Shown here piece after piece: positions 15,550-36,115 of a stretch of DNA of 64,000 bases. Below the pieces are notes generated by a model. The model saw only the letters and a program-made list of their open reading frames with translations, was not told the DNA's origin and searched no databases. The DNA is from a virus (Duplodnaviria > Heunggongvirae > Uroviricota > Caudoviricetes). The stretch covers positions 6,503 to 70,502 of IMG/VR virus record IMGVR_UViG_3300006217_000016. One strand, 5' to 3'. Position 1 is the stretch's first letter, and each line of letters starts with the position of its first letter. A program made the translations under genes and the position numbers.

Positions 15550-16068
15550 TTAGTTCCCCTTGTAGTAAAATTCGTGCCGGTAATCGACATGGAAATTTTC
15601 CACGCGATCATCGTCAATTTCATCACTTGTTGTTAAAACAACGCTTTTATCGGAGAATAAATAACGGAGCAGCCGCCCGCTGCTCCGAAGTATTCCGTCC
15701 ACGAACCTCAGATGATCGTCCTCACCAGCATGATCGACAAAAGCATTAACGCAATAAACGCCGCTTCCATATCTGTGATAGGTGGCCTTTTCAAACTCAC
15801 ATTGAACACCAACTTTCATCAGTTCTTCCATAATCCATGTCTTTGCGTTCTCTGCCTTTTTCATTTCATAAAGCGACAGGATACTGGAGTATAAATACGC
15901 AGCCTTATCCTCGACTGACCGCAGTTCAGCAGGCTCTCGGCCAAAATCGTCACATCGAAAATACACCTTTTCTGGATATTCTAGTTCAGCCTTCCTGTCC
16001 GTCACAATACAAATACAGTGGGTGCTGCTGGAATTGGTCTCAAACACCGAATTTCGTACTTGCCGCAT
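15550..16068 (-). CDS. Protein with N-terminal MRQVR-VFETNSSSTHC motif (paralog B)
   Basis: Start at the internal ATG, preceded by AAGGAGA. Shares its N-terminal 20 aa with 10720..11016. Confidence 0.55.
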   Translation of the reverse strand: MRQVRNSVFETNSSSTHCICIVTDRKAELEYPEKVYFRCDDFGREPAELRSVEDKAAYLYSSILSLYEMKKAENAKTWIMEELMKVGVQCEFEKATYHRYGSGVYCVNAFVDHAGEDDHLRFVDGILRSSGRLLRYLFSDKSVVLTTSDEIDDDRVENFHVDYRHEFYYKGN

Positions 16069-16240
16069 TGGTTTTCTCCTTAAACTGATATGTTGTTCGT
16101 TCTGTAATCCGTCATTACAGATGTCCAGGTGAGATGTGACTGGACATCTGAATGATGCCAAAGGACTCGCGAGCGGCGCGACTTCGTCGGCGTCAGCCGA
16201 CCTCGTCGCGCTCGCGCAGCGAGGAAACAAACAAATCCAT

Positions 16241-16262
16241 ACTCCGATTAACAATACGGAGT
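16241..16262. repeat. Conserved hairpin repeat, copy A2 (ACTCCG-ATTAACAATA-CGGAGT)
   Basis: Stem carries compensatory changes relative to the other copies. Confidence 0.6.
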
Positions 16263-16449
16263 GCCCGCTTTATGTATTGATTGGTTATAACAGGCGATAT
16301 ACATTACAGAACTGTCGGAATTTTCTTTTTGCAGCCTTGAAGAAGTGACGCCGATGATCCAAGATCCGGGAGGATCGCCCGCGATCCGTACGGATCTTTG
16401 ATCATTCGGAGGAACTTCTTTGAGCGTGTGAACGGTTACCCTTGCGTTT

Positions 16450-16469
16450 CTCTGATTCACAATACAGAG
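16450..16469. repeat. Conserved hairpin repeat, copy A1 (CTCTG-ATTCACAATA-CAGAG)
   Basis: Lies about 45 nt after the stop of the 16516..17130 gene. Confidence 0.6.
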
Positions 16470-16515
16470 TGCCCTATGTACGCAGACTGTGGGCTAATAC
16501 GCTGCAAAATGATTA

Positions 16516-17130
16516 TTACTCCTGGAACCTGTAGTCAACTCTCTCCCAGTTCCCAGGTCTTAGATATGTGATATAGATTTTGTCAAACGCCCAAGAACCG
16601 ACATCTCCCATGCCAGCCTCTCCGCGATAATCTCCGCCTCCCATGCCATTCCCGATGCAAGTGAGAAGCGGAAGCGGGTTGATACACCACACGCCAGACA
16701 TCCCGTATCTGTCGCGGACGGAGTTCCGCCTTATGTATTCCTCTATGTCGATGTAGCACTTTTTCGTTGCATTCACCAGATAGCACCCGGCGCTGTCGAG
16801 ATCGAGCTTATATTGTGGCGTTTCCGGTGAGATATCCTGAACGCTTCTGTATTCACCCCACACGCCGTTATACTTTTCAAGGAAGGCTTCAACACTTGTG
16901 ATATATCCATCACCAAAGTTGCATCCATCCTCCACTGCATCGGTGGCATAGTCTCCCATCCATGCGATACGGGCCGGTCTGTCCTCGATTTCATGCAGCA
17001 CCGCGTTAACAAAGTTATTGCCGATCCATGAGTGCTCCATCAGCTTGAGCCCATTGTCAAATGCGTGAGAATACGCAGACCGTTCCTCTCCGTCTTCAAA
17101 AATCATCAGCGGTCTATAATACTGTCCCAT
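16516..17130 (-). CDS. Hypothetical protein
   Basis: 204 aa. ATGA overlap with the upstream gene. Confidence 0.5.
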   Translation of the reverse strand: MGQYYRPLMIFEDGEERSAYSHAFDNGLKLMEHSWIGNNFVNAVLHEIEDRPARIAWMGDYATDAVEDGCNFGDGYITSVEAFLEKYNGVWGEYRSVQDISPETPQYKLDLDSAGCYLVNATKKCYIDIEEYIRRNSVRDRYGMSGVWCINPLPLLTCIGNGMGGGDYRGEAGMGDVGSWAFDKIYITYLRPGNWERVDYRFQE

Positions 17131-17570
17131 CAGCTCGCCCTCCCAAGCACAGCTATAAAGCTGTCCGTTTCAATATCCTCCTCGATGTCAGCAGGCGCAA
17201 ACCAGTCGTCGGCATCTTCATCGGTGTCTTCTTCAATATCGTCTTCGACATTTTCTTCTTCTTCATCCCACGCTTCGTTTTCGTCCATATGCCGGAGGAC
17301 TTCGTTCTTGTAGTCGTCAAATGAATAATCTGCGTCCTCATATCCGCCATATCCATCCTCGCGGTAGTAATCGCAACGAGTCGGAATGTTCGCCAGAAGG
17401 CCACGGATTTCTTCCCAGTCACGCATATTGCCGATTGTTTCCAGCAGGATTTCATTGAGGTATTCTGCATCATAAACATCGTTGCAGAGATCATCAATTC
17501 CCTCATCAACACAGAAACTGATTAGGTCGCCGAATGAGTTTACACCTTCGATAAATTCCTGACGTGTCAT
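17130..17570 (-). CDS. Acidic small protein P1 of the C-terminal-tail family (ends DSFIAVLGRAS)
   Basis: 146 aa. RBS AAAGGGG upstream. Lies immediately downstream of the tRNA cluster. Confidence 0.5.
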   Translation of the reverse strand: MTRQEFIEGVNSFGDLISFCVDEGIDDLCNDVYDAEYLNEILLETIGNMRDWEEIRGLLANIPTRCDYYREDGYGGYEDADYSFDDYKNEVLRHMDENEAWDEEEENVEDDIEEDTDEDADDWFAPADIEEDIETDSFIAVLGRAS

Positions 17571-17594: not shown

Positions 17595-17669
17595 TGGTGA
17601 CCCGGACGGGAGTCGAACCCGCGTTACCAGAGTGAAGGTCTGGTGTCTTAACCGCTTGACTACCGGGCC
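17595..17669 (-). tRNA. tRNA, probably Glu (UUC) with an unusual C33
   Basis: Clean cloverleaf. Acceptor GGCCCGG/CCGGGTC, T-loop TTCGACT, CCA encoded. Anticodon loop CCUUCAC. Confidence 0.6.
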
Positions 17670-17672
17670 GTA

Positions 17673-17748
17673 TGGTCTGAGTGGGGAGGATCGAACTCCC
17701 GGCCTCGTGATCCCAAATCACGCGCTCTGCCAACTGAGCTACACCCAG
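17673..17748 (-). tRNA. tRNA-Pro (UGG)
   Basis: Acceptor CTGGGTG/CACTCAG with C1-G72. D-arm GCTCAGTTGGCAGAGC. Anticodon loop TTTGGGA. CCA encoded. Confidence 0.75.
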
Positions 17749-17851
17749 ATATTGTGCGGGCGGGGATTTTCACCCCGCATAGGTAAGATTATGTACCTGC
17801 TACCGAGCTTGTCGCCCATCGGCTACTTCACCGAACCCAAACAGGAGGACA

Positions 17852-17930
17852 ACGATGGACTCGAACCATTGTCTTACCCTACCTCTCGTTATAGCGTCTA
17901 CCTATTCCGCCACCGCACATTTTGTATTGT
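17852..17930 (-). tRNA. Degenerate tRNA-like remnant (T-loop GGTTCGAGTCC; no consistent acceptor or anticodon arm)
   Basis: T-arm-like sequence found, but hand-folding failed. Adjacent GCGGGG-ATTTTCA-CCCCGC hairpin at 17764-17782. Confidence 0.2.
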
Positions 17931-18039
17931 GTAGCTCTAAAAACAGGACTCCCGCAGGCGAGCGTCCCTGTAAACCTGCTACACTCGGTTTTGAGCGTGC
18001 CCATCCCGCAGGGCGGCGGGGTGCTCCGTGTACTTTGGA

Positions 18040-18074
18040 GCAAAGAAAAAGATCGTGCCGAGAACTACGGCACG
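18040..18074 (-). terminator. Rho-independent terminator just 3' of tRNA-Gly
   Basis: Hairpin CGTGCCG-AGAACTA-CGGCACG followed by a U-run on the minus strand. Confidence 0.55.
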
Positions 18075-18075
18075 C

Positions 18076-18151
18076 TGGAGTGAGAGACGGGACTTGAACC
18101 CGCAGCTTCCGACTTGGAAGGACGGCACTCTGCCAGTTGAGTTACTCCCAC
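18076..18151 (-). tRNA. tRNA-Gly (UCC)
   Basis: Acceptor GTGGGAG/CTCTCAC. D-stem ACTC/GAGT. Anticodon loop CTTCCAA. T-arm GCGGGTTCAAGTCCCGT. CCA encoded. Confidence 0.75.
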
Positions 18152-18154
18152 AGA

Positions 18155-18573
18155 TGGTGGAGCCGGCGGGAATCGAACCCGCGTCCGAAATTCCTACATG
18201 AGCAAGACCTTTTTACGCAATAGGTTTCCTTTTAGGTGGATGCCTTATGGCGGGGCACCAAGATGGAATCCAAATCTACCCCAGGGCGTACCAGTTAAGT
18301 ACACCTCCACCACCTTGTCTTTTTGAACAGATTACAAGGAAAACTGTTTTTCTGGCGTATCCTCGACCGCAGGTACTTACCCAGCCAGAGGTGTACCGTT
18401 TTGGAATCCTGCCGACAGTTAAGCGGCGACCCTCTCTGCCATGAAGGCGGCGAAAGCGGGATGGATCATAACAACACTCATATCATTGTCATTTCATTTT
18501 TTGTTTAGCCTTAAGGCGGTCTCTACCTGCGAATCTTACTCTCTCAGAACCCCGTCGAAACCTTTACGGCCCC
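18155..18573 (-). ncRNA. ssrA: tmRNA (SsrA), about 419 nt
   Basis: 5' end GGGGCCGUAAAGGUUUCGACGGGG and 3' end AUGUAGGAAUUUCGGACGCGGGUUCGAUUCCCGCCGGCUCCACCA are near-identical to bacterial tmRNA termini. An internal frame ends ...AFAAFMAERVAA-UAA (stop near 18419-18421), consistent with a degradation tag. Confidence 0.8.
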
Positions 18574-18603
18574 GTAAAAGAGGCCCGGCGTATAGCCGGG
18601 CCG
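18574..18603 (-). terminator. Hairpin GGCCCGGC-GTATA-GCCGGGCC plus U-run immediately 5' of tmRNA (terminator-like or processing element)
   Basis: Perfect 8-bp stem followed by UCUUUU on the minus strand. Confidence 0.4.
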
Positions 18604-18677
18604 TTCCCCACATTGTTATAGACCGCATGGGTGCGCTGTCTTATTAAATACCATGTTTGCACGTTCCCCTTTCGGGG

Positions 18678-18753
18678 TGGAGCTGGTAACAGGAGTCGAA
18701 CCCGCGACACTCGGAGTACAAAACCGATGCTCTACCAACTGAGCTATACCAGC
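18678..18753 (-). tRNA. tRNA-Thr (UGU)
   Basis: Acceptor GCTGGTA/TACCAGC. D-arm GCTCAGTTGGTAGAGC. Anticodon loop TTTGTAC. CCA encoded. Confidence 0.75.
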
Positions 18754-18756
18754 AAA

Positions 18757-18832
18757 TGGAGCTGATGCACGGACTCGAACCGCGAACCTAAGCTTTACGA
18801 AAGCCTCGCTCTGCCATTAGAGCTACATCAGC
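18757..18832 (-). tRNA. tRNA-Thr (CGU)
   Basis: Acceptor GCTGATG/CATCAGC. Anticodon loop TTCGTAA. T-loop TTCGAGT. CCA encoded. Confidence 0.7.
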
Positions 18833-18836
18833 ATGT

Positions 18837-18911
18837 TGGCTGGGGTGACTGGATTCGAACCAGCGAATGAGGGAGTCAAAGTCCCTTGCCTTGCCGCTTG
18901 GCGACACCCCA
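18837..18911 (-). tRNA. tRNA-Gln (UUG)
   Basis: U1-A72 acceptor (TGGGGTG/CACCCCA). Anticodon loop CTTTGAC. T-loop TTCGAAT. CCA encoded. Confidence 0.7.
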
Positions 18912-18946: not shown

Positions 18947-19621
18947 CTATACAAGCATTACCTTATTGTATAAGGCAATGAATTGATCATTCATAATTTT
19001 GTCGATATGGTAGTGTCCAAAATACCAACGTTTGAACTGAAGGTCAACCATAATACGCTCCAGATAGCTTACGAGCGGATCATTTTCATACCAATCTGCA
19101 ATCATGGTCTGAATGCTTCTTGGCGCACAGTGCGTTAACACATAATCAACAGACCATCCGTTGTTATCAAGCGCGTTGATCCCCCGTTCCATCTCTTCCA
19201 TAGATGGCATTTCGTCTTTCCACCAAGAAATATGTTCTGTACGATATTCTTTGTCATGAGATCTTGCACCGCCCATCACAAAGAACCTTTGCCCGTCGAT
19301 GGTCAGAACTTGTCCTCTCTCCAGATGGTAAATATTTGGCGCTATTTCTCGGACTTTACCACCGAACTTATCTTGAAGCGAAAATTTGCGGAGGATATCA
19401 AAATTCTCATGGTTCCCATCGATCCAGAGCGTGGTGAAGTTTTTACCCGCGAGCCATTTTTTCCACCATATCTCTCGTGTAGAACCGTCCCATATGAGCC
19501 CAAAATCCCCACAGACAATTAAATAATCCTTCTTAGTGAGCGATTTTTGCATCGGGAAGTTCTTGACAGACAACTTTTTTATGTCAATGTCCGCATGAGT
19601 ATCCCCTGTCACATAGATCAT
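18947..19621 (-). CDS. Calcineurin-like metallophosphoesterase
   Basis: Motifs VTGDTHAD, VCGDFG, GNHENF. Confidence 0.7.
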   Translation of the reverse strand: MIYVTGDTHADIDIKKLSVKNFPMQKSLTKKDYLIVCGDFGLIWDGSTREIWWKKWLAGKNFTTLWIDGNHENFDILRKFSLQDKFGGKVREIAPNIYHLERGQVLTIDGQRFFVMGGARSHDKEYRTEHISWWKDEMPSMEEMERGINALDNNGWSVDYVLTHCAPRSIQTMIADWYENDPLVSYLERIMVDLQFKRWYFGHYHIDKIMNDQFIALYNKVMLV

Positions 19622-19899
19622 TTTGAACCTCCAAGCATACGCATAAAGCTGTCTTCCTCAATGTCGATGGTTCCTTCTGGTTCATACAGCCTGATCTCAT
19701 TGCGTCCAACATACCATCCAAGTCCATGCTTGCAAGTATGTCCGCAGTCGTGTCCTCTTTGGATGGGCTTACCCCAATTAACACCAATATTATCTGATAC
19801 CCTGCATACTGTGCCAAGGTCGCCTATCTTGATATCAGGATTGCCGTCTGGATGATTACGAATAGCTTCGACACAATCTCCTACTTGAAATTCCATCAC
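19618..19899 (-). CDS. Small protein P2 of the C-terminal-tail family (GHDCxxxC...GWYV core; ends EEDSFMRMLGGSK)
   Basis: Paralogous to P3. Preceded on the sense strand by G8-TGA-CAAAGCGTG. Confidence 0.5.
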   Translation of the reverse strand: MMEFQVGDCVEAIRNHPDGNPDIKIGDLGTVCRVSDNIGVNWGKPIQRGHDCGHTCKHGLGWYVGRNEIRLYEPEGTIDIEEDSFMRMLGGSK

Positions 19900-20191
19900 G
19901 CTTTGTCACCCCCCCCGCACGGAGAGCGACACCAAGGAAGGAGTTCTCGTCGATATCTTCAACATCATCTTCGTACGGCCTGATATATCTCGTATGGACA
20001 TACCACCCGTGGCCGTACTCACAATTTCCGGAGCAATCATGTCCTTCACCTAATTCATTATCCCAATCGACACCAACATGATCTCCGTCAATATCGCACA
20101 CCGTTCCAGTATCGCCAACCATGATATAGTCACTCTCATCTGGGTTGTTGACGATAGCTTCTACTCGATCTCCAATTTGATACCTTGCCAT
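19856..20191 (-). CDS. Small protein P3 (paralog of P2). As sequenced, reads through a G8 tract into P2. A 7-G tract would end it at ...LRAGG-stop.
   Basis: Start placed at MARYQIGDRVEAIV (RBS AAAGGGTGG), homologous to the P2 N-terminus. An alternative upstream ATG at 20269 has no SD. Confidence 0.45.
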   Translation of the reverse strand: MARYQIGDRVEAIVNNPDESDYIMVGDTGTVCDIDGDHVGVDWDNELGEGHDCSGNCEYGHGWYVHTRYIRPYEDDVEDIDENSFLGVALRAGGVTKRDGISSRRLCRSYS

Positions 20192-20644
20192 GGATACCAC
20201 CCTTTCGTGAAAGTCTGGCGCAATACTTAAAACCTGTGTTTTATCCCATACATAATAGCCATACTGCATGGGATGGCAAAAGGACGCTGAACTCGGGATT
20301 TTCCACTACCTCTTATTTCAAATAAATACTCGGATCAGCGTCCTAAAGTCCTTGAAATACGCACTTTGTTGTTTGTGATCTGCATTATATCTCGGCAGGC
20401 TACGAGGAGGGCTCCCTGCATCCGGATACAGCTCCCGGTTACTGCTGTCATCTGGTTTGGAATGATGTCGTGTGTCTGTGGGTTCCTGACATCGGGTGCC
20501 GAACTCCTTGAGTCTCAGTGTGTTGGCGGGTTTGGTGACCTTTGTCCTGATGGCCCCTGTGCGGGTCGGCGCCTGAGCAGGTGGTCGTCGGCTGCCGCGG
20601 GATCTCTGATCGCACGCACTGCGGCCGCCAAGCCGTCATCCTCC

Positions 20645-20681
20645 ACCCAACCATTCGTTACTCTGATTTACAATACAGAGT
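20645..20681. repeat. Conserved hairpin repeat, copy B, with upstream block CCACCCAACCATTCGTT
   Basis: ACTCTG-ATTTACAATA-CAGAGT, about 40 nt after the stop at 20720. Confidence 0.65.
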
Positions 20682-20719
20682 TTAAGTCTTTCGACTTAAA
20701 ATACATCGCAACAACAAAG

Positions 20720-21271
20720 TTATTTTATATGCACAATATATCGCCCGCCGGTCGGCGGCTCTTGCTCAACGACCCGAAAACCAACAGAAGAATACTGATC
20801 CCAAACCTGTCCCCAGTTGATATAGTCGGTCAGCACGTCTTTACTGAGGGTGTCAAGCATCTCGTCTGTAACACCGTGGTCAAACGGCACTTTGAGTTCA
20901 GTCGCCAGATAACAAGCTGCGGTCTCCTTTGCGTTCATCGCCCAATGAAGATCAGATATGTCCTCGAACATAAAATCGTTTTCTTTCAGCTTACGCACAA
21001 ATTCCGGATCGAACAGGTCACCAGAAGACGAAGCTTCCATCAGAACCTTCAAATAATCTTCCGTCATCCCAGGATTTTCGCTGTTGATATCATCCAGTAT
21101 ATCGTTCAATCCACTGATATCGTCGTTTCGGCTGATTGGAATGTTGGGCGTGGTGGACAGAATAATGTAATCATAATGATTCTCTAATTCTGCCCGCAGA
21201 TTACATGGCAGTACAATGACTTTGGATTCGCCGCAATCCAAATCACTGACTTCGACTGCCAGTTGAATCAT
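20720..21271 (-). CDS. Hypothetical protein downstream of the RT
   Basis: Start at MIQLAVEV with RBS GAGGTGG. The ORF extends upstream to 21298. Confidence 0.5.
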   Translation of the reverse strand: MIQLAVEVSDLDCGESKVIVLPCNLRAELENHYDYIILSTTPNIPISRNDDISGLNDILDDINSENPGMTEDYLKVLMEASSSGDLFDPEFVRKLKENDFMFEDISDLHWAMNAKETAACYLATELKVPFDHGVTDEMLDTLSKDVLTDYINWGQVWDQYSSVGFRVVEQEPPTGGRYIVHIK

Positions 21272-21555
21272 ATCAACCACCTCTTTCATGCTTTGCATAA
21301 ACTTTGTAATCTACCATAAGGGATAGGAAGCTGGCCATGGTTTCCTCCAGAGAGGTGAGTCTGGGAATGTCATCTCGTGTGTTCCCGGCTGTCCGAACTG
21401 GTGTCAGGTTTCAGGAATTTTTGTGACGGAGTTCCTGCTGATTTCCTGGCGAAATGTGCAGTTCGGTAATAGTTCCGTTCTTCGTGATGTTGGTAAGGGT
21501 GTTTAGCATCTCCTGCTGCCGTCGCGGCCGGCAGCACTGCGCAGCCTGGCAGGCT

Positions 21556-21598
21556 CCCTTCTCCCAGCCATTCGTTACTCTGATTTACAATACAGAGT
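21556..21598. repeat. Conserved hairpin repeat, copy C, with upstream block CCCTTCTCCCAGCCATTCGTT
   Basis: ACTCTG-ATTTACAATA-CAGAGT, about 45 nt after the RT stop. Confidence 0.65.
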
Positions 21599-21643
21599 GC
21601 CTTTTGAGGAACAAAAGGCTATACATTACAAAATTTTGCTTAT

Positions 21644-22783
21644 TTATGCGGCCAAATCCTCATGGATGGTACGCATTACGTCCGTTTGATATTTTTCGTT
21701 GTTGTACTTGATGACCTCGTCAACATACTTTTCTTCAACCATCCGGTAGTAGTTGATAAGGCCGCGCAAAACCTGAACATCGTGCAGTTCCCAGACAATT
21801 CCGTTCTTACGGTCGAGGATGTAGTTGCTGATCATTGCACGAAAACGCTGCTTGTTCTTGTGACCGATGGTGATCTCATTGTCCTTATTGAGCATGAGCC
21901 CGAGGTTCCAATTACTGCCGGCTCTGGAACCATACCTCGTCTTCTCATCCTTGATCTTGAACGGCGCATGGAAATCATCCAGCGTCTGATTGATGAAGTC
22001 GATGACCTTATTGTAGTCAAACTCTCTCCGGCTTGAAATTAGAGAGTCGTCTGCGTATCTGGTGTAAACGAACGACTGCCCGTTAAAATCACGCAGGGTA
22101 TTGTATACCTTGTGATCAAGGGGGATCATCATCAGATTTGTGAGCATCGGAGAAATCGGCGTGCCCTGCGGCAATCCGCCATGAAGAAAACAGAGGTTGA
22201 GTGCCTTGTCCAGTGCTGCTCTGCCCCGTTCTGACTTGACAATCTCGCTGAACGGGAAAATCAAAGAGAGCGAATACCGAAGGAATACCAGCGTTGTGTC
22301 CCCAAAAAAGTTCGAGAAATCCGTCTTTAAGAACCAATGACTGTCATTCCTCTGGTGACGTTTGATGGCGTCAATGGTGGAACGATTCTTAACATAGGCA
22401 AAGGCGGAGGTGTGGTACAGCGCAAACATCTTGGTCTCAAACAAAGTCTTCAGATTCCGAAGCGCCGTCATCAGTTCTGGCACAGGGGCATTGATCTCAC
22501 GCAGGCCGCCGGACTTCTTCGGAATATGGAATGTGGTATAGAGGGCTTCTCTCGGAACGGCATACAGCTCGGCATTTTGTTCGCAAAAACTCTCCAGAGC
22601 GGAGACCATACCGGCGAAATCGAACCGATCCAGAAACTGTGGCTTGAGTCGCTGTGCGAAATGCGTTCTGGTATTGGTGCTGTTTGAAGTTATCATAGAC
22701 TGCATGTTGACCTCACCAGATATGATTTCCTCAAATGATATCTGATGGTATGCAGGCGATTGCATGACGGTTATGTATGGCAT
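21644..22783 (-). CDS. Reverse transcriptase, retron/group-II-like (QGxxxSP and YADD motifs), 379 aa
   Basis: Motifs IPKKSGGLREINAP (RT1), FLKTDFSNFF (RT3), LPQGTPISP (RT4), YTRYADD (RT5). RBS AGGAGG upstream. Confidence 0.85.
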   Translation of the reverse strand: MPYITVMQSPAYHQISFEEIISGEVNMQSMITSNSTNTRTHFAQRLKPQFLDRFDFAGMVSALESFCEQNAELYAVPREALYTTFHIPKKSGGLREINAPVPELMTALRNLKTLFETKMFALYHTSAFAYVKNRSTIDAIKRHQRNDSHWFLKTDFSNFFGDTTLVFLRYSLSLIFPFSEIVKSERGRAALDKALNLCFLHGGLPQGTPISPMLTNLMMIPLDHKVYNTLRDFNGQSFVYTRYADDSLISSRREFDYNKVIDFINQTLDDFHAPFKIKDEKTRYGSRAGSNWNLGLMLNKDNEITIGHKNKQRFRAMISNYILDRKNGIVWELHDVQVLRGLINYYRMVEEKYVDEVIKYNNEKYQTDVMRTIHEDLAA

Positions 22784-23079
22784 ATTTTTAATACCTCCTG
22801 ATGTCTGTATTCTGGTATACAGTAGGTTGAGGAATTCAGGATGCGATGGGTACTTGAGAGCTGGGACTGAGTGCGGGCTCGGTGGGTAATCTGGTGAGTG
22901 ATTTGCGGCGGTCCGATGGTTCTTGGGGTCGCCATCTGTCTTCCTGTTTGCTGTCCGTCACCTTTCTGGTCGAGATGTCAAGAGTTCTTTGCGTATTTGG
23001 AGCAGTAGAAAACAGTTTATTTATTACCTCTTGACCTCGGTGGCGGGCAGGCGCCTTCAGATTCCGCCTCCGGGCGGGG

Positions 23080-23124
23080 TGTCCCTTCTCCCAGCCATGC
23101 GCAACTCTGATTTACAATACAGAG
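23080..23124. repeat. Conserved hairpin repeat, copy D, with upstream block CCCTTCTCCCAGCCATGCGCA
   Basis: CTCTG-ATTTACAATA-CAGAG in the RT upstream spacer. Confidence 0.65.
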
Positions 23125-23227
23125 CACCCTCAGAATAACTCTGAAAGTAATGCAATACAGACTATATGGAAGGGGCAGCGGCAACCAAAGCCACTGCCCC
23201 TATAGAACTATCGTAAAACGTGATGCC

Positions 23228-23899
23228 TTACACGGCGATCACGTCGAATTCAAAAGCATCCACAAGAATCATCTTGCGGAGTTTCTCGCCCTTCACGAAG
23301 TTGATGAAGTTGGCTACGCCGTAGGCAACGATCGTTCGCACCGTCGGAACAACCGACAGTGTGATATTGCAGGCAGAAACGGGCGTCGCCTCTTTTGCCT
23401 CATCATGAGAGAACGCCATGCTGTCGATAAAGTTCTCCACCATCTTCTTGTCGCTCCAGTCAGCGGCATAGTGCTGGGCGTCCGTCAGCCGCATCCGGAA
23501 GTCGAACATCCCCTTGACGAACGTGTTCTCCTTACAGGAGGTGGCGATCTCCCGGCGGAGGTCAATGTTGTCCACCGCCAGGAACACATAACCGGAGAGA
23601 CGCTGGCCTGTCCAGCCCTCTTTGACCAGCTTCAGATCGGGGGCGCAGTCCGGATTGATCTCGGTGAGATACTCAGCCAAAGCATCAACCTTGGCCTTGC
23701 CGATATCCGTATTCCGGAACATCTGGTTGGCAATGTTGTGGGCTTCTACGGTATCGAAGTCATACAGCGTGATTTTCGTAATGCCGAACCGCACCAGATT
23801 CTCAGCGACCGTGGAACCAATCGCTCCACAGCCGATGATATGAATCCGCGATTCGAGCATATCCGGCTTGAAGAATTCGTAGGACTTCGCCAAATCCAT
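23228..23899 (-). CDS. E1-like ThiF/MoeB-family protein
   Basis: Rossmann motif IHIIGCGAIGSTVAENL followed by YDFDTVEAHNIANQ. RBS AAAGGAGAG. Confidence 0.65.
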   Translation of the reverse strand: MDLAKSYEFFKPDMLESRIHIIGCGAIGSTVAENLVRFGITKITLYDFDTVEAHNIANQMFRNTDIGKAKVDALAEYLTEINPDCAPDLKLVKEGWTGQRLSGYVFLAVDNIDLRREIATSCKENTFVKGMFDFRMRLTDAQHYAADWSDKKMVENFIDSMAFSHDEAKEATPVSACNITLSVVPTVRTIVAYGVANFINFVKGEKLRKMILVDAFEFDVIAV

Positions 23900-23916
23900 T
23901 GTTTGTCTCTCCTTTC

Positions 23917-24789
23917 TTACTGTCCGAGGTATAGGCGGTCATAGGGATCGTCTTCGTCGAATTGGTAGTCGGAAAAGGACCGGCCAATGCCGGTATCACC
24001 TCCGTTTACCTTCGGTTTTGTTTTGACTCCGACGACGCTCGCACCGGCCGTCGCCGCCGGCGTTGTTGTCTGACTGATGGGTGTGACGACCCGCGTCTGC
24101 GTCTGCTGATAGGTTCCCTGAAAACCGGTGACAGGCTTATAGGTTCTGTTGGTGACGATCTCCTTGGCGCTGCTGATGAAAGCCTGAAGATCCACGCCGA
24201 CATCTCCAATATACACATCAACATCTGCCGTGTCGTACAGGGTGTTGTTCTTCAGATCGAAGATGCGGACAAAGTGCTCGTACCGCTTGTTCCAGATCAT
24301 GAAGATGTAGTAGTCGTCATCGGAGATTTGCTCCAGAATCTTCTCCTGGTGAGTTGTGTCCACACCAGAGGGAGACACGCCCATATTGACGTGGCTGTGT
24401 CCTTGCATCCGGATGTTATTGAACACATCATCATCAAAGGAGTAAAGCCACGTCTGGTACGCCTCTTGATCGGTGTTGACCGTTGCGCCGGTAACAACCT
24501 GCGGGTATACCAAAATGTCGGTGATGTGGAAGATGGACGGATCCTGCTCATCACGGTGAACCACGCCGTGCCACGCGACCTCGTCGTTGAACTGCTGAAT
24601 GAGCGAGTTCATCTTGGCGAAGGCAATCGAGGACAGGTAGACAGTTGCCCGGTCGTCATCGCCCTCCCACTTGAACGTCCGGCTGTATTCCAGCTTTCCG
24701 TCAAACATCTTGGTGGACTTCACCTTTGCGATGAACTCCTCCTGAATTTTTTGCAGCAGCTCGTCCGTGAGCTTAATGGGCTTACTCAT
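23917..24789 (-). CDS. JAB/MPN (JAMM) metallopeptidase-domain protein
   Basis: JAMM motif HSHVNMGVSPSGVD (HxHx7Sx2D) with upstream acidic residues. Start at MSKP with AGGAGGAGAG upstream. The longer ORF begins with a K/R-rich stretch. Confidence 0.65.
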   Translation of the reverse strand: MSKPIKLTDELLQKIQEEFIAKVKSTKMFDGKLEYSRTFKWEGDDDRATVYLSSIAFAKMNSLIQQFNDEVAWHGVVHRDEQDPSIFHITDILVYPQVVTGATVNTDQEAYQTWLYSFDDDVFNNIRMQGHSHVNMGVSPSGVDTTHQEKILEQISDDDYYIFMIWNKRYEHFVRIFDLKNNTLYDTADVDVYIGDVGVDLQAFISSAKEIVTNRTYKPVTGFQGTYQQTQTRVVTPISQTTTPAATAGASVVGVKTKPKVNGGDTGIGRSFSDYQFDEDDPYDRLYLGQ

Positions 24790-26275
24790 GGCTCTCCTCC
24801 TGTTCTTTTTCTTTCTTCGCCTTGACATCTTGTTCCTCCAACCACAATACGGCCTCAAACGGCGTCTTGGTCGTACCGTCGGGCATTTCGATTACCTTAC
24901 CGATCCTGTTCGAGAACAGCAACTGCGTCATCTTGCCGGTTGTTGCGCTCTCCTGAACATTGACGCTCTTTGCCGACTGAACACAAGCAGCTACCGCGCC
25001 GACATAATCCCGGTTACGCATAGATTGGCGAATTGTCGCCTCATTTCCACCAAGGCAGTGAAACGCCTGGATGTGCTGGTTCGGCGTGTGATCCATGATG
25101 ATATCCGACGGGAAATCGTATCCGCTAATCCCGGCGTACCTGCCGTTATCGAAGTTCAGCGAATATGCGGCGCAAATGCGAATCTTCATCGTCTCTTTGA
25201 CGAAAATCTCCGTCATCAGACGCTTAATGCGCTCTACCGTCATATTTTCGTTGTCACGATATTCATAGATGTAGCTACGGTTATTCTGAATGACGGACTC
25301 CGCTGCGTCAGGATCGAAGTTTGCAACCGTGGTGGTTACAATGAACTTGATTTCGCCATTGTATACGCTGACCAGATGCAGCGAATTGTTGCATAGGAAG
25401 TAGTCCAAAAGCTCGCTGCTCTCCGCGCCGCCTCCGTGTGTGATTTTATCGACCAGACCGCACTCCTGCGTTCTCAGGTCGTCCATCTGCTGGTAGTAAT
25501 TGGAGAAAGTGCTCTCCAAATCACGCATCCTGCGATCCATATCGTTGATCTGGCTGCGGACGGACTCCAGCTTCCGGCGGTCAAAGTGTGTTTCAAAGCC
25601 GGTCAACTGATTGCGGATAACCTGTGACCGGAAGTCAAACCGCTTGGCGAACTCCTGAATCTTCGTTTCATAGCTGGGGGCGTAACGCTTTGTGAGCGTC
25701 TTGACGATCTCAATCTCCTCGTCAGTCATCGGATTGGACTCGAAGTACCACGGGAAGTAGCGGGAAATCAGAGACTCCAGCATGTGCCACCGCTTCATGT
25801 TCATCTTTTCCGTGAAGATGATGGTGTTGCGGTACTCCTCGTTCACATAGACCTTGGCGCGGAACTTTGCGTCGCTCTCAATCCATGCGGACAGATCCGC
25901 CAGGAGCTTGTATCCAGAGACTGTCTTTGGAACACCTTCAACGAGTTTCTCGAAGCAGGTTGTGTTGCTCTCGTCGCTCCCCTCAAATGAATGGATGAGC
26001 AAAATGCCGGTTGAACCATCCATAATCGGAGTTCGGTTAAAGAAAGCCCTGACGCAGTCTCTCGGAGACGAGCCAGATAACTGCCCGGAACTGTAGTCTG
26101 TGCTTTTATATCGCAGTGTGATTGACTCCTCTTTCGGAACCCTGCTATACAGCAAAGCTCTCAAGGTCGCAACGAACGACTCGTCATTGCGGAACTTATC
26201 TCCGCCGATATTCGGGAATACGGTCGATGCGATCTCATTGGTGAGAGTCAGACCAGTGATTTCTTTTGAGAACAT
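24782..26275 (-). CDS. Large protein with a C-terminal UBC/E2-like signature
   Basis: C-terminal stretch YDFPSDIIMDHTPNQHIQAFHCLGG resembles the UBC HPN...Cys active-site region. RBS AAAAGGAG. Overlaps the JAB start by 8 nt. Confidence 0.45.
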   Translation of the reverse strand: MFSKEITGLTLTNEIASTVFPNIGGDKFRNDESFVATLRALLYSRVPKEESITLRYKSTDYSSGQLSGSSPRDCVRAFFNRTPIMDGSTGILLIHSFEGSDESNTTCFEKLVEGVPKTVSGYKLLADLSAWIESDAKFRAKVYVNEEYRNTIIFTEKMNMKRWHMLESLISRYFPWYFESNPMTDEEIEIVKTLTKRYAPSYETKIQEFAKRFDFRSQVIRNQLTGFETHFDRRKLESVRSQINDMDRRMRDLESTFSNYYQQMDDLRTQECGLVDKITHGGGAESSELLDYFLCNNSLHLVSVYNGEIKFIVTTTVANFDPDAAESVIQNNRSYIYEYRDNENMTVERIKRLMTEIFVKETMKIRICAAYSLNFDNGRYAGISGYDFPSDIIMDHTPNQHIQAFHCLGGNEATIRQSMRNRDYVGAVAACVQSAKSVNVQESATTGKMTQLLFSNRIGKVIEMPDGTTKTPFEAVLWLEEQDVKAKKEKEQEESHE

Positions 26276-26364
26276 AGCCTGCTCCTTTTCTGAAAGATTT
26301 AAGGGCTCCCACCGCTCAGATGGGAGCCCTCGGCCCTATGTATAGGGGACTGCGGTGGGTCTGA

Positions 26365-26619
26365 TCAGGCGTTGTCAGCCTTGACGACGGAGATCAGGAA
26401 GCACTTGTCGTGGCCGGGCTCGCCGGTGTAGCCCATCTCGGCGAAGGTCTGATCCAGCTTGGCACCGGTGACGGTCTCGCCGTCCAGGGACAGCATACCC
26501 ACGGAGTAGTCGATGCCGGTCTCGCCCTGGGTGCTCTCCAGAGCCTGGCGGATGGTGGTGTTGGGGTTCAGGTTGAAACGGGCGCGCTTCAGGTTGTTAC
26601 CGATAGTGACGTTAATCAT
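26365..26619 (-). CDS. Small beta-grasp-like (ThiS/MoaD/Ubl-like) candidate, 84 aa, no terminal GG
   Basis: Length and hydrophobic pattern resemble a beta-grasp fold. Ends KADNA. RBS AAGGAGAA. Confidence 0.35.
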   Translation of the reverse strand: MINVTIGNNLKRARFNLNPNTTIRQALESTQGETGIDYSVGMLSLDGETVTGAKLDQTFAEMGYTGEPGHDKCFLISVVKADNA

Positions 26620-26706
26620 GATTCATTCTCCTTCTTATTCAAAAAATTTTGGGTTGACAGGTTTGTGTTGCCGGGCGGGGATTTCCCCGCCCGGACTTAG
26701 CCATCC

Positions 26707-27108
26707 TTAGATGACGGTGATGTTAGCCATGACCTCGGCGTTCTCAGCCTCGACCTCGGCCAGGGCATCGTCGATGCCGGCCTCCACCTTGTTCAGGCGA
26801 ACCACGGCCTTGCCGACCAGCTTGGCAGCATAGTCGATCACGTTCTCAGTCCCAGCGGGGACGGGAATCGTGATGGTGGCCAGCTTCGCCTCGTCGTGGG
26901 TCTCGGAGGCGAAAGTCGCGCCGTTCTGGTTGATGCTGCCGGCAGCAGCGGCGGTCTCCACGCGGAAGATTTCCTCCTTCTTACCGTTCTCATCGGTCTC
27001 GATGAGACGAAGAGCCTTCGGGCGGTACTCCTCCAGCGTCTTCAGAGCCTTGAGGCTCTTGCCGCTGGTGACGATGATCGCGTCACCAGCAATGGTGATC
27101 TTTGCCAT
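26707..27108 (-). CDS. Hypothetical protein (start at MAKITIAGD)
   Basis: The upstream extension of the ORF would translate the poly-G tract and terminator. RBS AAAGGATG. Confidence 0.45.
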   Translation of the reverse strand: MAKITIAGDAIIVTSGKSLKALKTLEEYRPKALRLIETDENGKKEEIFRVETAAAAGSINQNGATFASETHDEAKLATITIPVPAGTENVIDYAAKLVGKAVVRLNKVEAGIDDALAEVEAENAEVMANITVI

Positions 27109-27221
27109 ACTGATACATCCTTTCTGTTCGGGCTTTGCCCTTAATATGTACCCCGTTTGCTCACCCCCCCCCATCGGGGGCTCCCCAGCCTGAACCACGA
27201 GGAGGTGGGGCCGATCAGGCC

Positions 27222-27254
27222 GCAAAGAACCCCGTAACTTTTCAGCTACGGGGC
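27222..27254 (-). terminator. Rho-independent terminator after P4
   Basis: CCCCGUA-GCUGAAAAGU-UACGGGG hairpin followed by UUCUUU on the minus strand. Confidence 0.6.
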
Positions 27255-27259
27255 TCTTG

Positions 27260-27703
27260 TCAACTTCTGATGATTCGATTGAATGCGTCTTCTGATATTT
27301 CCGGGTTATTGCAGGCCATCCCCTCTGGATGGTATTCAAAGTGGCAGTATGGATACCAGTCGTTATAGTCTCCGGTTCCAACCTCCAAAATGATCTCGTC
27401 AGTTACCTCGTCTTGCATCACCAGGATGTCATTATCGTATCCGCCATCTTCTTCGTTCTTCATGTAACATTTCATGGCCTGCGGCGGAAACGAATATCTC
27501 GGCGGATCATCGGACACAACAAGCTCCCTGCATCTGCTTCTATATCCATCTTCCGGGTCTTCGACAGCCATGTAGTGAACACCGTCAAGCGTAAACTTTA
27601 CGAAGTTGCAATCCTGTGATTCACCCCAACTATCATCCACACATATACGTCCGGTTTCGACACCTGACAGTTTGTGTGTTCCTACCAAATCGGAAAGTTC
27701 CAC
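27260..27703 (-). CDS. Small protein P4 of the C-terminal-tail family (ends ISEDAFNRIIRS)
   Basis: GTG start 7 nt after GGGAGGTGA, which also encodes the IGR-stop of P5. Confidence 0.5.
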   Translation of the reverse strand: MELSDLVGTHKLSGVETGRICVDDSWGESQDCNFVKFTLDGVHYMAVEDPEDGYRSRCRELVVSDDPPRYSFPPQAMKCYMKNEEDGGYDNDILVMQDEVTDEIILEVGTGDYNDWYPYCHFEYHPEGMACNNPEISEDAFNRIIRS

Positions 27704-27707
27704 TTAA

Positions 27708-28022
27708 TCACCTCCCGATGATAGCCGCAAAACTTTCGTCGGAGATGTCCTCTTGCTCTTCCCCATAGAAAGTGCATTTCATGTAGTCGTCCGCATCGTT
27801 CTTTGACCCATATCTCACAGTATCGCCTCTGATATAGTAGCAGAAATTACCACGGTGTTTCTCCCAGTAATTTTTCTTCAGAGGACTCTCGCCGGTCGGG
27901 TATTTGATGCCAAACGCGACTAATATTGCGGCAAATTCACGCTCCAAATCTGCTTCTGGGCAATTTACAGCAACATAGCTGTTTTCTCCCAGCATTGATG
28001 TATCAAATGGCCTGTCCCACAT
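27708..28022 (-). CDS. Small protein P5 (ends ISDESFAAIIGR)
   Basis: RBS GGGAGGT upstream. Paralogous core (KCTFYG) with P6. Confidence 0.5.
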   Translation of the reverse strand: MWDRPFDTSMLGENSYVAVNCPEADLEREFAAILVAFGIKYPTGESPLKKNYWEKHRGNFCYYIRGDTVRYGSKNDADDYMKCTFYGEEQEDISDESFAAIIGR

Positions 28023-28027
28023 TTGTC

Positions 28028-28384
28028 TTACCTCCCTTGATTACCCCCCCCCGCAGAGATAATTGCTTCAAATCCGGCATCGGAGATTTCAAAGTCGGGC
28101 TCCACGCCGTAAAATGTGCATTTGATATAATTTCTGTATGCGCTGTCTGAGTAACATGTTCTGCTCCCATATTTCATTGTTCCTCGCGGTTCAATGCGAT
28201 AACAGGTTTCTTCTCTGTTCTCATGCCAATGAGTTTCTCCAACTGGCTCATCACCATACCATTTTATATCGTTTTCTTCTAAAAACGAAAACAGTTCATC
28301 TACCAAGTCTTTGTCAGGACAATGGATGATGACACCGTTGAATAGCATTGAAATCTCAAGCGGAGTGTCTGGCCAATCTACCAT
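28028..28384 (-). CDS. Small protein P6 (ends ISDAGFEAIISAGGGNQGR; G9 tract in the C-terminal codons)
   Basis: Paralog of P5. Start is 6 nt after G8-TGA of P7. Confidence 0.5.
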   Translation of the reverse strand: MVDWPDTPLEISMLFNGVIIHCPDKDLVDELFSFLEENDIKWYGDEPVGETHWHENREETCYRIEPRGTMKYGSRTCYSDSAYRNYIKCTFYGVEPDFEISDAGFEAIISAGGGNQGR

Positions 28385-28836: not shown

Positions 28837-28922
28837 TGGTGTCGATGATGGGATTTGAACCCATACGGCGTTAGAGCCAACAGGGTTTGAGCCTGTCATG
28901 TCTACTATTCCATCACATCGAC
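28837..28922 (-). tRNA. tRNA-Leu (CAA)
   Basis: Acceptor GTCGATG/CATCGAC. Anticodon loop CTCAAAC. Long variable arm. T-arm ATGGGTTCAAATCCCAT. CCA encoded. Confidence 0.7.
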
Positions 28923-28925
28923 ATA

Positions 28926-29012
28926 TGGTGTGGGCGGCGGGAATTGAACCCGCACATCGAACCCGATATAGAGGCTTAAACTCCATGTGTCTTCCAATTC
29001 CACCACGCCCAC
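28926..29012 (-). tRNA. tRNA-Leu (UAA)
   Basis: Acceptor GTGGGCG/CGCCCAC. Anticodon loop TTTAAGC. Long variable arm. T-arm GCGGGTTCAATTCCCGC. CCA encoded. Confidence 0.7.
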
Positions 29013-29590: not shown

Positions 29591-30424
29591 TTATCTCCAG
29601 TTCGTACCAATCCGACCGTCTGGGTGGATTATGATATTGGAGTATCCGGCTCCATAGTCATTCTGGCGTTGCTGCCACATATCTCCAAGTGTTACGCGGG
29701 CGTGCTTTCCATCGTAGTCAAAGGTCGCATAGACAAAGAAGTCACCGATTCTGAATGTATGTACATCAATTTCTTCGTCCTCTTGCAGAGCATTCCAGAT
29801 ATCTACCGGGTAATCCTTCTTCTCAAGCCCGCTAAGGAACCGGAACGAAAAGCTGTCGGCATCTATCTTCATGTAATCTTTGATTGACGAGAGAGACGGA
29901 CTTTCCATCACTGTTTGGACTGTGCAACCGGGAAACCGGGCCGGATTTGCATGGACGAACTCATTGTGGGACAGGTTGATATGAGCCAACCCACTCAGGT
30001 CTGCGTTGAAACCAGCAGTATTGATAGAGCAAAAAACATTGTTGCTATTACACCTGTATGTCTCAGCGATATTCGCAATCTGCTCTGGGTAAAGTCCTGG
30101 TTCTCCACCTGTTATGGTAAGTCTGGCATCTGGATGCTCGCCAAGTACTATTTTCAAAGCCTCGATTTGGGCAGGGAAATTATTGTCGCCCGCCATAGGG
30201 TTTTGCCGCTCCAAACAGAACGGGCAGTTAAAGGGGCACTCTTCCGTTGTAATCAACTGGACATTGATACGGTAGTACAGAGGTCGGCCAAGGGACGTTT
30301 CCACCTTCCTGCTCTGTAATCTATACCGCAGGTCATCCCGCATCTCAGTCCTTATGTCTTCGTAGGAACCAATAAATGGAATTCTGTTCATTTTGCTACT
30401 CACTCGCGCCAACCTCCTTCGCAT
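29591..30424 (-). CDS. Radical SAM domain protein (second copy)
   Basis: CPFNCPFC (CxxxCxxC) and the GGEP motif LTITGGEP. Start ambiguous (30424 or 30391). Confidence 0.6.
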   Translation of the reverse strand: MRRRLARVSSKMNRIPFIGSYEDIRTEMRDDLRYRLQSRKVETSLGRPLYYRINVQLITTEECPFNCPFCLERQNPMAGDNNFPAQIEALKIVLGEHPDARLTITGGEPGLYPEQIANIAETYRCNSNNVFCSINTAGFNADLSGLAHINLSHNEFVHANPARFPGCTVQTVMESPSLSSIKDYMKIDADSFSFRFLSGLEKKDYPVDIWNALQEDEEIDVHTFRIGDFFVYATFDYDGKHARVTLGDMWQQRQNDYGAGYSNIIIHPDGRIGTNWR

Positions 30425-30593
30425 CAAAGAACTATTTGATTGCTGTAACGATAATGAAAAGTATGACTATCGCCAAACACCAGAAGCCTTGTTTTTGGTA
30501 GAGTTTGCGGCAACAAGAACGTTCCTCGACATACCGTTCCCATGCCAAATCAGATACGAAATCTTCTCGTTTCATTCAAGACGCTCCTCTCTC

Positions 30594-31267: not shown

Positions 31268-31343
31268 TGGTGGAGATAGTCGGGATCGAACCGGCGACCT
31301 CCTGCTTGCAAGGCAGGCGCTCTCCCATCTGAGCTATATCCCC
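31268..31343 (-). tRNA. tRNA-Ala (UGC)
   Basis: Acceptor GGGGATA/TATCTCC with G3-U70. Anticodon loop CTTGCAA. CCA encoded. Confidence 0.8.
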
Positions 31344-31348
31344 ATATT

Positions 31349-31434
31349 AGAGAGTGGTGGGAATCGAACCCACGCAGCGCATATCCGGTTGACAGGCATG
31401 TATCTGCCCCGCTCTGCCACTGAGCTACACTCTC
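31349..31434 (-). tRNA. Atypical tRNA (anticodon arm folds only with a 6-nt loop GATACA; about 20-nt unstructured variable region)
   Basis: Perfect acceptor GAGAGTG/CACTCTC. D-arm GCTCAGTGGCAGAGC. T-arm GTGGGTTCGATTCCCAC. No CCA. Anticodon not assignable. Confidence 0.45.
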
Positions 31435-32423: not shown

Positions 32424-32601
32424 TCGATGAATCGTCCTCCCATTCTTCAAAGTATTCCTCGGACTCGTCGTCCTCGATTTCTCTTTTTGCATCGTTGAAT
32501 AGGTCTAAAAACCACCCGCCAATGTCTTTGAAGGCAAAGCTCAGGCAGAACCAGACCAGAACCAACACGATAATGACGAGAAGCCAGAAAACAATGTTCA
32601 T
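32413..32601 (-). CDS. Small membrane protein upstream of SPFH (NfeD-like partner?)
   Basis: 62 aa with one TM helix and an acidic tail. Confidence 0.4.
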   Translation of the reverse strand: MNIVFWLLVIIVLVLVWFCLSFAFKDIGGWFLDLFNDAKREIEDDESEEYFEEWEDDSSNER

Positions 32602-35817: not shown

Positions 35818-36042
35818 CGACCCACGCTACTGAGGTTTCTTATTTCGTAAGTGTGCGTGTAGCTTAGTCCGTATCAATTCATAAACTAAACTATCGGATT
35901 TTCCCGACTTTCTACCCACTGCTGGGTCATCCCCTCAGACCAAGGAATGGGGACGCCTCCCAATCCCTTCCGTATCTCGGTACTCTTTTCACGATACGGT
36001 ATGCCGCGTAAAGCCCGTCGCGGTCAGCTTTGCCATGTGGTT

Positions 36043-36115
36043 TAGCGTGGACCGGGCTTGAACCGGCGACACACGGATTATCAATCCGCAGCTCTACCTA
36101 CTGAGCTACCACGCC
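36043..36115 (-). tRNA. tRNA-Ile (GAU)
   Basis: Acceptor GGCGTGG/CCACGCT. D-arm GCTCAGTAGGTAGAGC. Anticodon loop TTGATAA. T-loop TTCAAGC. No CCA encoded. Confidence 0.7.

Follow-up and report, generated by a model that had tools for sequence, protein, structure and literature searches.

Does the reverse transcriptase (RT) of apparent retron type that lies beside a set of ubiquitin-like (Ubl) conjugation genes in a phage genome belong with them, and if so, what might the two do together? The question is raised by a stretch of 64,000 nucleotides (nt) of viral DNA from the Caudoviricetes record IMGVR_UViG_3300006217_000016 (positions 6,503 to 70,502), hereafter the window. As had been supposed from the letters alone, this is a true phage genome fragment: from about 42 kb onward its plus strand has genes that PHROGs models identify as those of a terminase large subunit, a portal protein, and an exonuclease, and the window also encodes 12 tRNAs and one transfer-messenger RNA (tmRNA). 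The minus-strand arm from 1 to 41 kb looks accessory, with genes for nicotinamide phosphoribosyltransferase (NAMPT), an NAD synthase, a phosphoribosyl pyrophosphate (PRPP) synthetase-like protein, and PspA, Band7, radical S-adenosylmethionine (SAM), and sigma-factor-like proteins. Within this accessory region, on the strand opposite to the terminase and portal genes, lies an island that is best read as a single conserved phage element in which a Ubl-conjugation cassette, ordered as in the bacterial Bil systems, would occupy the place of a retron effector; the coupling of the two halves and their joint role are proposals that we weigh below. Its genes run on the minus strand in the order p133, Ubl, 497-residue protein, JAB peptidase, ThiF-type E1, and RT, with a structured noncoding RNA (ncRNA) ahead of the last:

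26707..27108, minus strand: p133, 133 residues, fold not recognised; opens the cassette, immediately upstream of Ubl; present in 90 of 103 related loci
26365..26619, minus strand: Ubl, 84 residues, predicted beta-grasp protein with the conserved C-terminal end ...VVKADNA
24782..26275, minus strand: 497-residue protein, candidate E2-like or UBC/RWD-like protein with the invariant residues P398-N399-x-H401...C407
23917..24789, minus strand: JAMM/MPN+ (JAB) metallopeptidase, 290 residues from an ATG; its start overlaps the stop of the 497-residue protein by 8 nt
23228..23899, minus strand: single-domain minimal ThiF-type E1, 223 residues; Pfam ThiF 1.6e-26; conserved Cys177
22803..23162, minus strand: ncRNA unit U1, ending 20 nt before the RT start; folding z = -2.4; closing stem GUCUGUAUU/GAAUACAGAC
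21644..22783, minus strand: predicted retron-type RT, 379 residues, YADD active site; RVT_1 2.6e-17; PADLOC retron RT_II-A 6e-47

The five open reading frames (ORFs) that an earlier, sequence-only reading had named are all found at these minus-strand coordinates; p133 is a sixth conserved gene, missing from its list.

The evidence that the two halves belong together is comparative. Alignment searches with the family of the 497-residue protein yielded 79 viral loci and 16 loci from metagenome-assembled genomes (MAGs), the latter mostly labelled Oscillospiraceae or other Clostridia; these, with eight further loci, make up the 103 considered here. A search of IMG/VR with the single 497-residue protein returned no match, whereas the alignment-based search succeeded; among GenBank phages, nucleotide and protein searches found a sole relative, the unannotated MT835544.1. 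In the loci of this family the order p133, Ubl, 497-residue protein, JAB, ThiF is constant, and the order Ubl, E2-slot protein, JAB, E1 is shared by about 180 related loci. Where at least 3.5 kb of sequence follows ThiF, the RT is found on the same strand, 129-2314 nt further on, in 84 of 86 loci. The converse search, started from the most distant RT, recovered 80 loci of another clade, with ThiF in 80/80 and both the 497-residue protein and JAB in 79/80; the lone miss has merely 1.4 kb of upstream sequence. The rest of the window is far less well kept, for the six island genes occur in 90-103 of the 103 loci, other neighbours in the window in at most 38, and the immediate ones in 2-8. Moreover, the link between RT and cassette is retained down to 24-27% identity of the 497-residue protein. 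The earlier suggestion that the RT and the Ubl set belong together thus gains comparative support, and the linkage, as far as these sequences go, exceeds general synteny, yet does so within one broad phage lineage. The stronger wording, by which the RT was fused to the cassette or directly abutted it, does not hold: a structured RNA of about 360 nt always lies between them, joined in most relatives by one to several extra genes. Among the loci, L003 has a phage integrase gene (1596-2417) 7.5 kb from its island, and L089 is an island copy in a 358,930-bp contig of an Eubacteriales MAG; both hint at some temperate members.

The cassette proteins can be assigned with differing confidence. The sequence of the 84-residue Ubl matches no family in the library scans. 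Its model, built from a 16-sequence alignment (predicted local distance difference test, pLDDT, 87), displays two strands, a helix, two further strands, a short helix, a strand, and a floppy tail; BilA is its best structural match, and BilA, ubiquitin, and SUMO rank first, so that the proposed beta-grasp identity is borne out by the predicted fold. The best-conserved part of the protein is its C-terminus, ...V-V-K-A-D-N-A, to which about 15% of the homologues add 1-6 unrelated residues; a few read ...D-G-G plus two residues. In BilA a fixed end is likewise followed by disposable residues, which are trimmed off by the JAB enzyme BilC (PMC10557695), and because of this resemblance we propose that the island Ubl would be a precursor trimmed by its own JAB. 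That protein retains a complete JAMM motif, E70...H131-S-H133-x7-S141-x2-D144, invariant in 88/88 JAB homologues, and over the catalytic core a 12-member profile matches RPN11, a deubiquitinase of the proteasome (E=0.0027), which upholds its earlier identification as a JAMM/MPN peptidase. The 290-residue sequence alone has no Pfam match; the PADLOC JAB model matches at 0.0039, and two family members match Prok-JAB. The E1, separated from the JAB gene by 17 nt, has a GxGxxG loop and an S-A-C177 motif conserved in 78 homologues, and its Pfam ThiF match confirms the ThiF-type assignment. PADLOC models of Cap2-type E1-E2 proteins match it down to 1e-20 over the Rossmann part only, as do the NCBIfam models (ThiF, MoeB, TcdA, PRTRC_ThiF, and the 6A-MBL Cap2-like model), all of the latter far below their cut-offs. 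The first gene product, p133, has no match in Pfam, NCBIfam, PADLOC, PHROGs, or PDB; that it might be a second beta-grasp protein was rejected on an hhalign comparison with the Ubl that shows no relation.

The 497-residue protein in the E2 slot is harder to place. Its model (pLDDT 91) has two alpha/beta domains, one N-terminal and one C-terminal, with a helix of about 55 residues between them. The C-terminal domain passes from a helix and two strands through a helical insert to two more strands, and then to the P398-N399-x-H401 loop, C407, and three helices. N399 and C407 are spaced by 8 residues; this spacing (HPN...C) and the order of elements we take to be E2-like, by comparison with N77 and C85 of UbcH5. 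The UBC-like C-terminus proposed earlier survives as regards element order, the invariant Cys, and the Asn-to-Cys spacing, and fails every profile test and Foldseek: no UBC domain was found in the family by Pfam (54 members), by a profile search of PDB, by Foldseek against PDB, or by hhalign against three E2s. Because none of these gave an E2 match, we call the protein, on the grounds of its model, a candidate E2-like protein and not an E2. A deep profile search places it in a family of 2431 representatives at 50% identity, all of them without annotation, and the best 150 matches are all full-length members of this same family, with no bridge to a known fold. The best Foldseek matches of the model, non-significant at E 0.4-1, include several Pol-beta-type nucleotidyltransferases and alarmone synthetases (TUT7, Trf4, Tailor, URT1, OAS3, RelQ-like), which may reflect the N-terminal domain.

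On the other side of the island, the RT, whose family conserves YTRYADD, finds its top matches in NCBIfam and PADLOC exclusively among retron RTs. It scores 175 bits against the NCBIfam retron St85 model (cut-off 235) and stays below the curated cut-off of every named type. Against the group II maturase model it reaches 81 bits (cut-off 300), and around it Rfam detects no intron RNA, either at the gathering score or at E up to 10. The sequence-only reading had left the choice between retron and group II type; the St85 and RT_II-A matches favor the former, and the maturase score and missing intron RNA dispose of the latter, so the sequence marks the enzyme as a retron-type RT and not that of a group II intron. 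None of its neighbours matches a PADLOC effector, no effector of retron types I-XIII is present, and only the Ubl cassette genes are conserved nearby.

The retron affinity is strengthened by the RNAs that flank the RT. A conserved hairpin had been remarked on in the RT leader. It is real (23104-23124), and it is not unique to the leader: the window's minus strand has five occurrences of the hairpin CTCTG-TATTGTAAAT-CAGAG, which belongs to a repeated msr/msd-like ncRNA with a copy number of 1-5. U1 consists of a segment a1, a G, hairpin 1, the conserved hairpin 2 (23104-23124), a TAACGAATGG-like box, a variable region, and a segment a2. Beyond the RT, the following features were delineated:

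21299..21636, minus strand: ncRNA unit U2, a paralogue of U1, starting 8 nt past the RT stop; z = -3.5; closing stem AAAUUUUGUAAU/AUUACAAAGUUU; covariance model (CM) score 61.5 bits
20720..21271, minus strand: p192 (probably 183 residues from an internal ATG), between U2 and U3; in 5 of 103 loci, the closest relatives only; no family match
20363..20720, minus strand: ncRNA unit U3, the third paralogue; closing stem CUUUGUUGUUG/CAAACAACAAAG; CM 52.6 bits
about 20285-20330: terminator-like hairpin after U3
about 16327-16509, minus strand: ncRNA unit U4, shorter; pattern/CM match at 16449-16469; closing stem proposed
about 16099-16312, minus strand: ncRNA unit U5, shorter; pattern/CM match at 16241-16261; closing stem proposed

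By its distribution p192 is not a conserved part of the island. U4 and U5 occupy the gap that separates ORF 15550-16254 from ORF 16516-17130, some 4 kb away from the RT, and the same two extras are found in locus L001; the TTG start annotated for ORF 15550-16254 overlaps an RNA unit and is probably wrong.

Across 19 copies from six phages, hairpin 2 has 5 bp and 3 bp with a bulged base between them and a triloop at the tip, and 100% of the cells are paired; double changes are seen at 6/8 pairs, and 0/500 shuffles match its covariation score. A covariance model recovered 146 copies of the hairpin in 66 sources; every one shares the strand of the genes and falls in the stretch that runs from the end of ThiF to the locus end. 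In nearly all loci a copy is positioned 250-345 nt before the RT start, and in most there is a further copy 37-75 nt past the RT stop, often with a third about 285 nt beyond. The units, of about 270-360 nt, follow a common plan. A 5' arm of 9-15 nt, ending in ...TGTAAT, is followed by a G and some five bases; next come a hairpin that varies with compensatory changes and then the conserved hairpin; and after a TAAC(G/A)A-T-G box and 150-250 nt of variable sequence there is a 3' arm complementary to the 5' arm. The closing helix between a1 and a2 is recovered by free-energy folding in 14/14 diverse units, and the 5' arm forms 9.3 contiguous Watson-Crick pairs with its own 3' region against 7.1 with those of other units (p=1.5e-29). 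The base right after the 5' arm is G in 77/84 units, a count that concerns position only, for what is a predicted branching G. Sequence and predicted pairing thus give these RNAs the msr/msd layout of retrons, as defined by a1/a2 repeats, a priming G, and msr hairpins (PMC8632793). A second phage clade (MT835544-like, with genomes of 140-150 kb) has the same layout before its RT, often as the single copy, which indicates that the upstream RNA is the constant component and that the extra copies are a clade feature. Rfam contains no family for the units. A role of the 21-nt hairpin as a phage promoter or terminator was rejected on the grounds of its RT-only location, its covariation, and the unit-specific long-range closing helices; scans for sigma-70 promoters and terminators gave background levels.

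The six genes and the RNA are inherited jointly while their surroundings change, and for this reason we consider that they might work as one system, a proposition for which, on these sequences, we hold the balance to be even. By analogy with known systems, the modifier would be made as a precursor that the JAB trims to the conserved ...DNA (or ...DGG) end, after which the single-domain E1 would adenylate it and hold it on Cys177. From there it could pass to Cys407 of the 497-residue protein, whose C-terminal domain would act as an E2, the target being chosen by its N-terminal domain and coiled coil or by p133, itself perhaps an accessory factor or a substrate. The RT would copy the variable region of each RNA into branched msDNA (multicopy single-stranded DNA), and with the Ubl cassette in the slot normally held by a retron effector, the RT-msDNA complex may gate, regulate, or partner the conjugation machinery, much as retron RT-msDNA does with effectors. 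The complex, for which there are as many as five template variants, could activate or steer a Ubl ligase; alternatively, the target of Ubl attachment might be the RT-msDNA complex itself, or host defence proteins recognised by it. A role in phage-host or phage-phage conflict is the most likely one, whether as defence against rivals or as counter-defence against the host, and would suit the accessory genes that surround the island, an NAD+ salvage set among them. The near-universal retention of the island in its lineage argues against a casual defence cargo. In its boldest form the proposal, which we advance tentatively, with more doubt than belief, would place the island in a new class of phage-borne systems that couple retron msDNA mechanistically to Ubl conjugation, with this as a core function widespread in a large gut-phage group.

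Several observations weigh against a single coupled system. In loci L072 and L097 no RT is found within 3.9-5.9 kb, although L097 has an RNA-unit match at its very end and its RT may lie just beyond. Between ThiF and the RNA-RT unit there is often an insertion of unrelated genes, one to several in number, so the halves do not form one tight operon; given the strong GC-rich hairpin that follows ThiF, the cassette and the RT unit are probably separate transcripts. All loci come from related large gut phages of Clostridia type, and in a single broad lineage it could still be shared history that accounts for the co-inheritance. PHROGs lacks a family for 4 of the 6 island proteins, and no cultured phage with the island was found. 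At the level of the components, the Ubl homologues have no universal C-terminal Gly, with Gly-Gly in few only and Asn-Ala at the end of the window protein; the E1 has neither a second domain nor a separate Cys domain; the candidate E2 failed the UBC searches described above; and at the place that would correspond to motif 7 the RT family reads N-x-I-T-x-G (ITIG in the window) where retrons have VTG. Finally, multiple copies of the ncRNA are not a feature of any retron known to us. Some of these points suit an alternative in which two independent systems, the Ubl cassette and a retron with another effector or none, share a conserved accessory slot without a biochemical link. Variable genes (a DUF6273-like gene of 265-300 residues and others) separate ThiF from the RT unit in most loci, a GC-rich hairpin follows ThiF before a fresh start of the RNA unit, L072 has the cassette without an adjacent RT, and every example is from related phages. 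Nonetheless, we judge such independence unlikely, if worth serious attention, since no other neighbour is retained in the way the RT is, no inserted or downstream gene (p192, at 5/103, included) is conserved enough to be a retron effector, and the search begun from the RT recovers the cassette in 79/80 cases, the miss having short upstream sequence.

Other alternatives concern the parts of the island. The cassette might be an E1, JAB, and Ubl set of another kind, with non-protein linkage or direct transfer from E1 to target, in which the 497-residue protein is a scaffold or a target. This would accommodate the lack of profile or Foldseek support for UBC, the weak matches to nucleotidyltransferases, and the Asn-Ala end of the Ubl in place of Gly-Gly, all the more as the E1-like MccB acts on a C-terminal Asn; with the E2-like element order, invariant Cys, and spacing on the opposite side, we think it improbable. 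A sulfur-carrier pathway of the ThiF/MoeB/TtuC type, serving cofactor synthesis or the thiolation of phage tRNAs without protein conjugation, is suggested by the top NCBIfam names for the E1 (ThiF and MoeB) and by the tRNA clusters and radical SAM genes nearby. However, the E1 matches lie far under the curated cut-offs (at best 79 against 159 bits) and cover the Rossmann part only, the Ubl ends in Asn-Ala and not in Gly-Gly, its model is closest to BilA, ubiquitin, and SUMO, and the neighbours scanned include no ThiG, ThiH, MoaE, rhodanese, or PP-loop partner; score, C-terminal end, and partner genes together render the MoeB-like pathway, which the sequence-only reading had itself named as a possible refutation, very improbable. 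An origin of the RT in a group II intron or a diversity-generating retroelement is scarcely credible: it could appeal to the RVT_1 domain and the weak maturase match of 81 bits, but the cut-off there is 300 bits, retron models score twice as high, no intron RNA is seen in Rfam (E up to 10), no template/variable repeat pair was found, and the flanking RNAs show the retron layout.

The reading of one island with a Bil-ordered cassette in the effector position can be set against the systems that it most resembles. The order Ubl, E2, JAB deubiquitinase, E1 is that of BilABCD (PMC10557695), and the likeness noted in the first reading of the window is real, with a large Cys-bearing protein in the E2 place. 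The Ubl model nearest to BilA, the variable residues after a fixed Ubl end, and the complete JAMM site are further points shared with BilABCD of Types I and II. Yet the Ubl, E2-slot protein, and JAB of the island have no sequence-profile relation to their Bil counterparts; its E1 is a 223-residue single ThiF, as opposed to tandem inactive and active adenylation domains (IAD+AAD) with a mobile Cys domain; its E2-slot protein extends to 497 residues with an additional N-terminal domain and coiled coil; and its Ubl ends in ...DNA, whereas the Bil Ubl has a conserved C-terminal Gly. The island also adds p133, is phage-encoded where Bil systems lie in bacterial defence islands, and stands beside a retron-type RT. 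By E1 architecture, Gly end, and sequence, the cassette thus falls outside BilABCD. Among retrons, type II-A (St85) is nearest, with a YADD RT, an upstream ncRNA on the same strand, an a1/a2 helix, a G after a1, and small msr-like hairpins in common. In contrast, the island RT is below the cut-off of every named family (175 against 235 bits), has I-T-x-G for VTG, is flanked by 1-5 paralogous ncRNAs instead of one, and is accompanied by no known effector type, and in the large phages sampled, whether virulent-looking or temperate, the island behaves like a set of core genes. In its RNA and RT clade the unit therefore appears to be a retron that fits no named type.

More distant resemblances are found in other ThiF- or JAB-containing systems. 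The PRTRC cassettes (ParB-related, ThiF-related) of plasmids and integrative and conjugative elements likewise combine a ThiF-type E1 with small partner proteins on mobile elements, but the island E1 scores 35.6 bits against 144.75 for PRTRC_ThiF, and the island has no match to PRTRC A-F and no ParB. We know of no PRTRC cassette with an RT. The Cap2/Cap3 module of cyclic-oligonucleotide-based antiphage signaling systems (CBASS) shares the E1 Rossmann part and a JAB partner, but the Cap2 match extends over about 70 residues only, and the island lacks the E1-E2 fusion, the CD-NTase (cGAS/DncV-like nucleotidyltransferase), and the effector. A phage-encoded beta-grasp and JAB pair also exists in the tail-assembly proteins TAPI and TAPK of lambdoid and T1 phages (PMC1779556), which are without an E1 and an E2-like protein and lie in tail modules, unlike the island with its accessory-region setting. 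The ThiF-type genes of other phages, namely Xanthomonas jumbo phages and Dulem virus 41, were rejected as the same island on account of their differing contexts and the lack of an annotated RT. Those of Xanthomonas phage PhiXhv-12 (L104, 143445-144128) and Dulem virus 41 (L105) have 28-31% identity to the island E1 and lie among replication genes, with small ORFs and the gene of a large hypothetical protein beside them; they may represent further phage E1 systems. No combination like that of the island occurs in PADLOC, NCBIfam, or PHROGs, and literature searches (retron with ThiF, phage-encoded Ubl systems, PRTRC, phage retrons) yielded no description of it, nor any paper tying retrons to ThiF/E1 or describing a phage E1-JAB-Ubl set of this kind. 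The early impression of a non-standard architecture is thereby sustained.

The pairing of a retron-type RT with a Ubl cassette is thus the property of a large family of gut phages, kept as one block, and absent from the defence-system libraries and papers searched. Bacterial Ubl conjugation (Bil, Cap2, Bub) and retrons have both recently emerged as topics in phage defence and have so far been studied as host weapons; the island puts a version of both into a phage, and hundreds of divergent genomes have kept it as a block. If the halves do cooperate, the island would be the first case of a retron whose effector is a protein-conjugation system, and the first of a viral Ubl system of the bacterial kind. 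The 223-residue minimal E1, the modifier ending in Asn-Ala, and the Cys-bearing 497-residue partner offer experimental handles, and an RT with several natural template RNAs may interest those engaged in retron-based genome editing. Even if the halves are independent, multi-copy retron RNAs and an unannotated Ubl cassette are each worth describing.

The genes surrounding the island present some features of their own. Small proteins on both sides of it (17130-17570, 19618-20269, and 27260-28384, all on the minus strand, and 11372-13014 in L072) share an acidic tail, and some have an SH3-like part. The tails read ...EEDSFMRMLGGSK, ...DESFAAIIGR, and ...DAGFEAIISAGGGNQGR, and in L072 ...ELDSFFGDFGGE; a homologue of one of these proteins is located between JAB and ThiF in L013, L079, and L089. 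A regular expression for the tail (acidic-SF-xxx-LGG), applied to neighbouring small proteins, found it in few other loci. The acidic tails could be a shared docking or processing motif, or their bearers could even be substrates of the cassette. The NAD synthase, NAMPT, and PRPP-synthetase-like genes are grouped at 11039-11803, 12246-13772, and 14187-14987; we take such an NAD+ salvage set to be of the kind that phages use against NAD-depleting defences, and these are possible counter-defence genes. Other cargo unusual for a phage includes an ABC-transporter permease domain, a PspA/IM30-like protein, an SPFH/Band7 protein, a sigma-70 region 4 protein, and two radical SAM proteins (3657-4454, 1798-2541, 31494-32492, 39845-40627, 9781-10701, and 29591-30427). 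The tmRNA has the tag AVEDTPEKQFSL, and the tmRNA and tRNA genes map to 18155-18573, 17595-18911, 28837-29012, 31268-31434, 36042-36116, and 49115-49188; among them, at 31349-31434, ARAGORN calls a tRNA with a four-base anticodon (acat).

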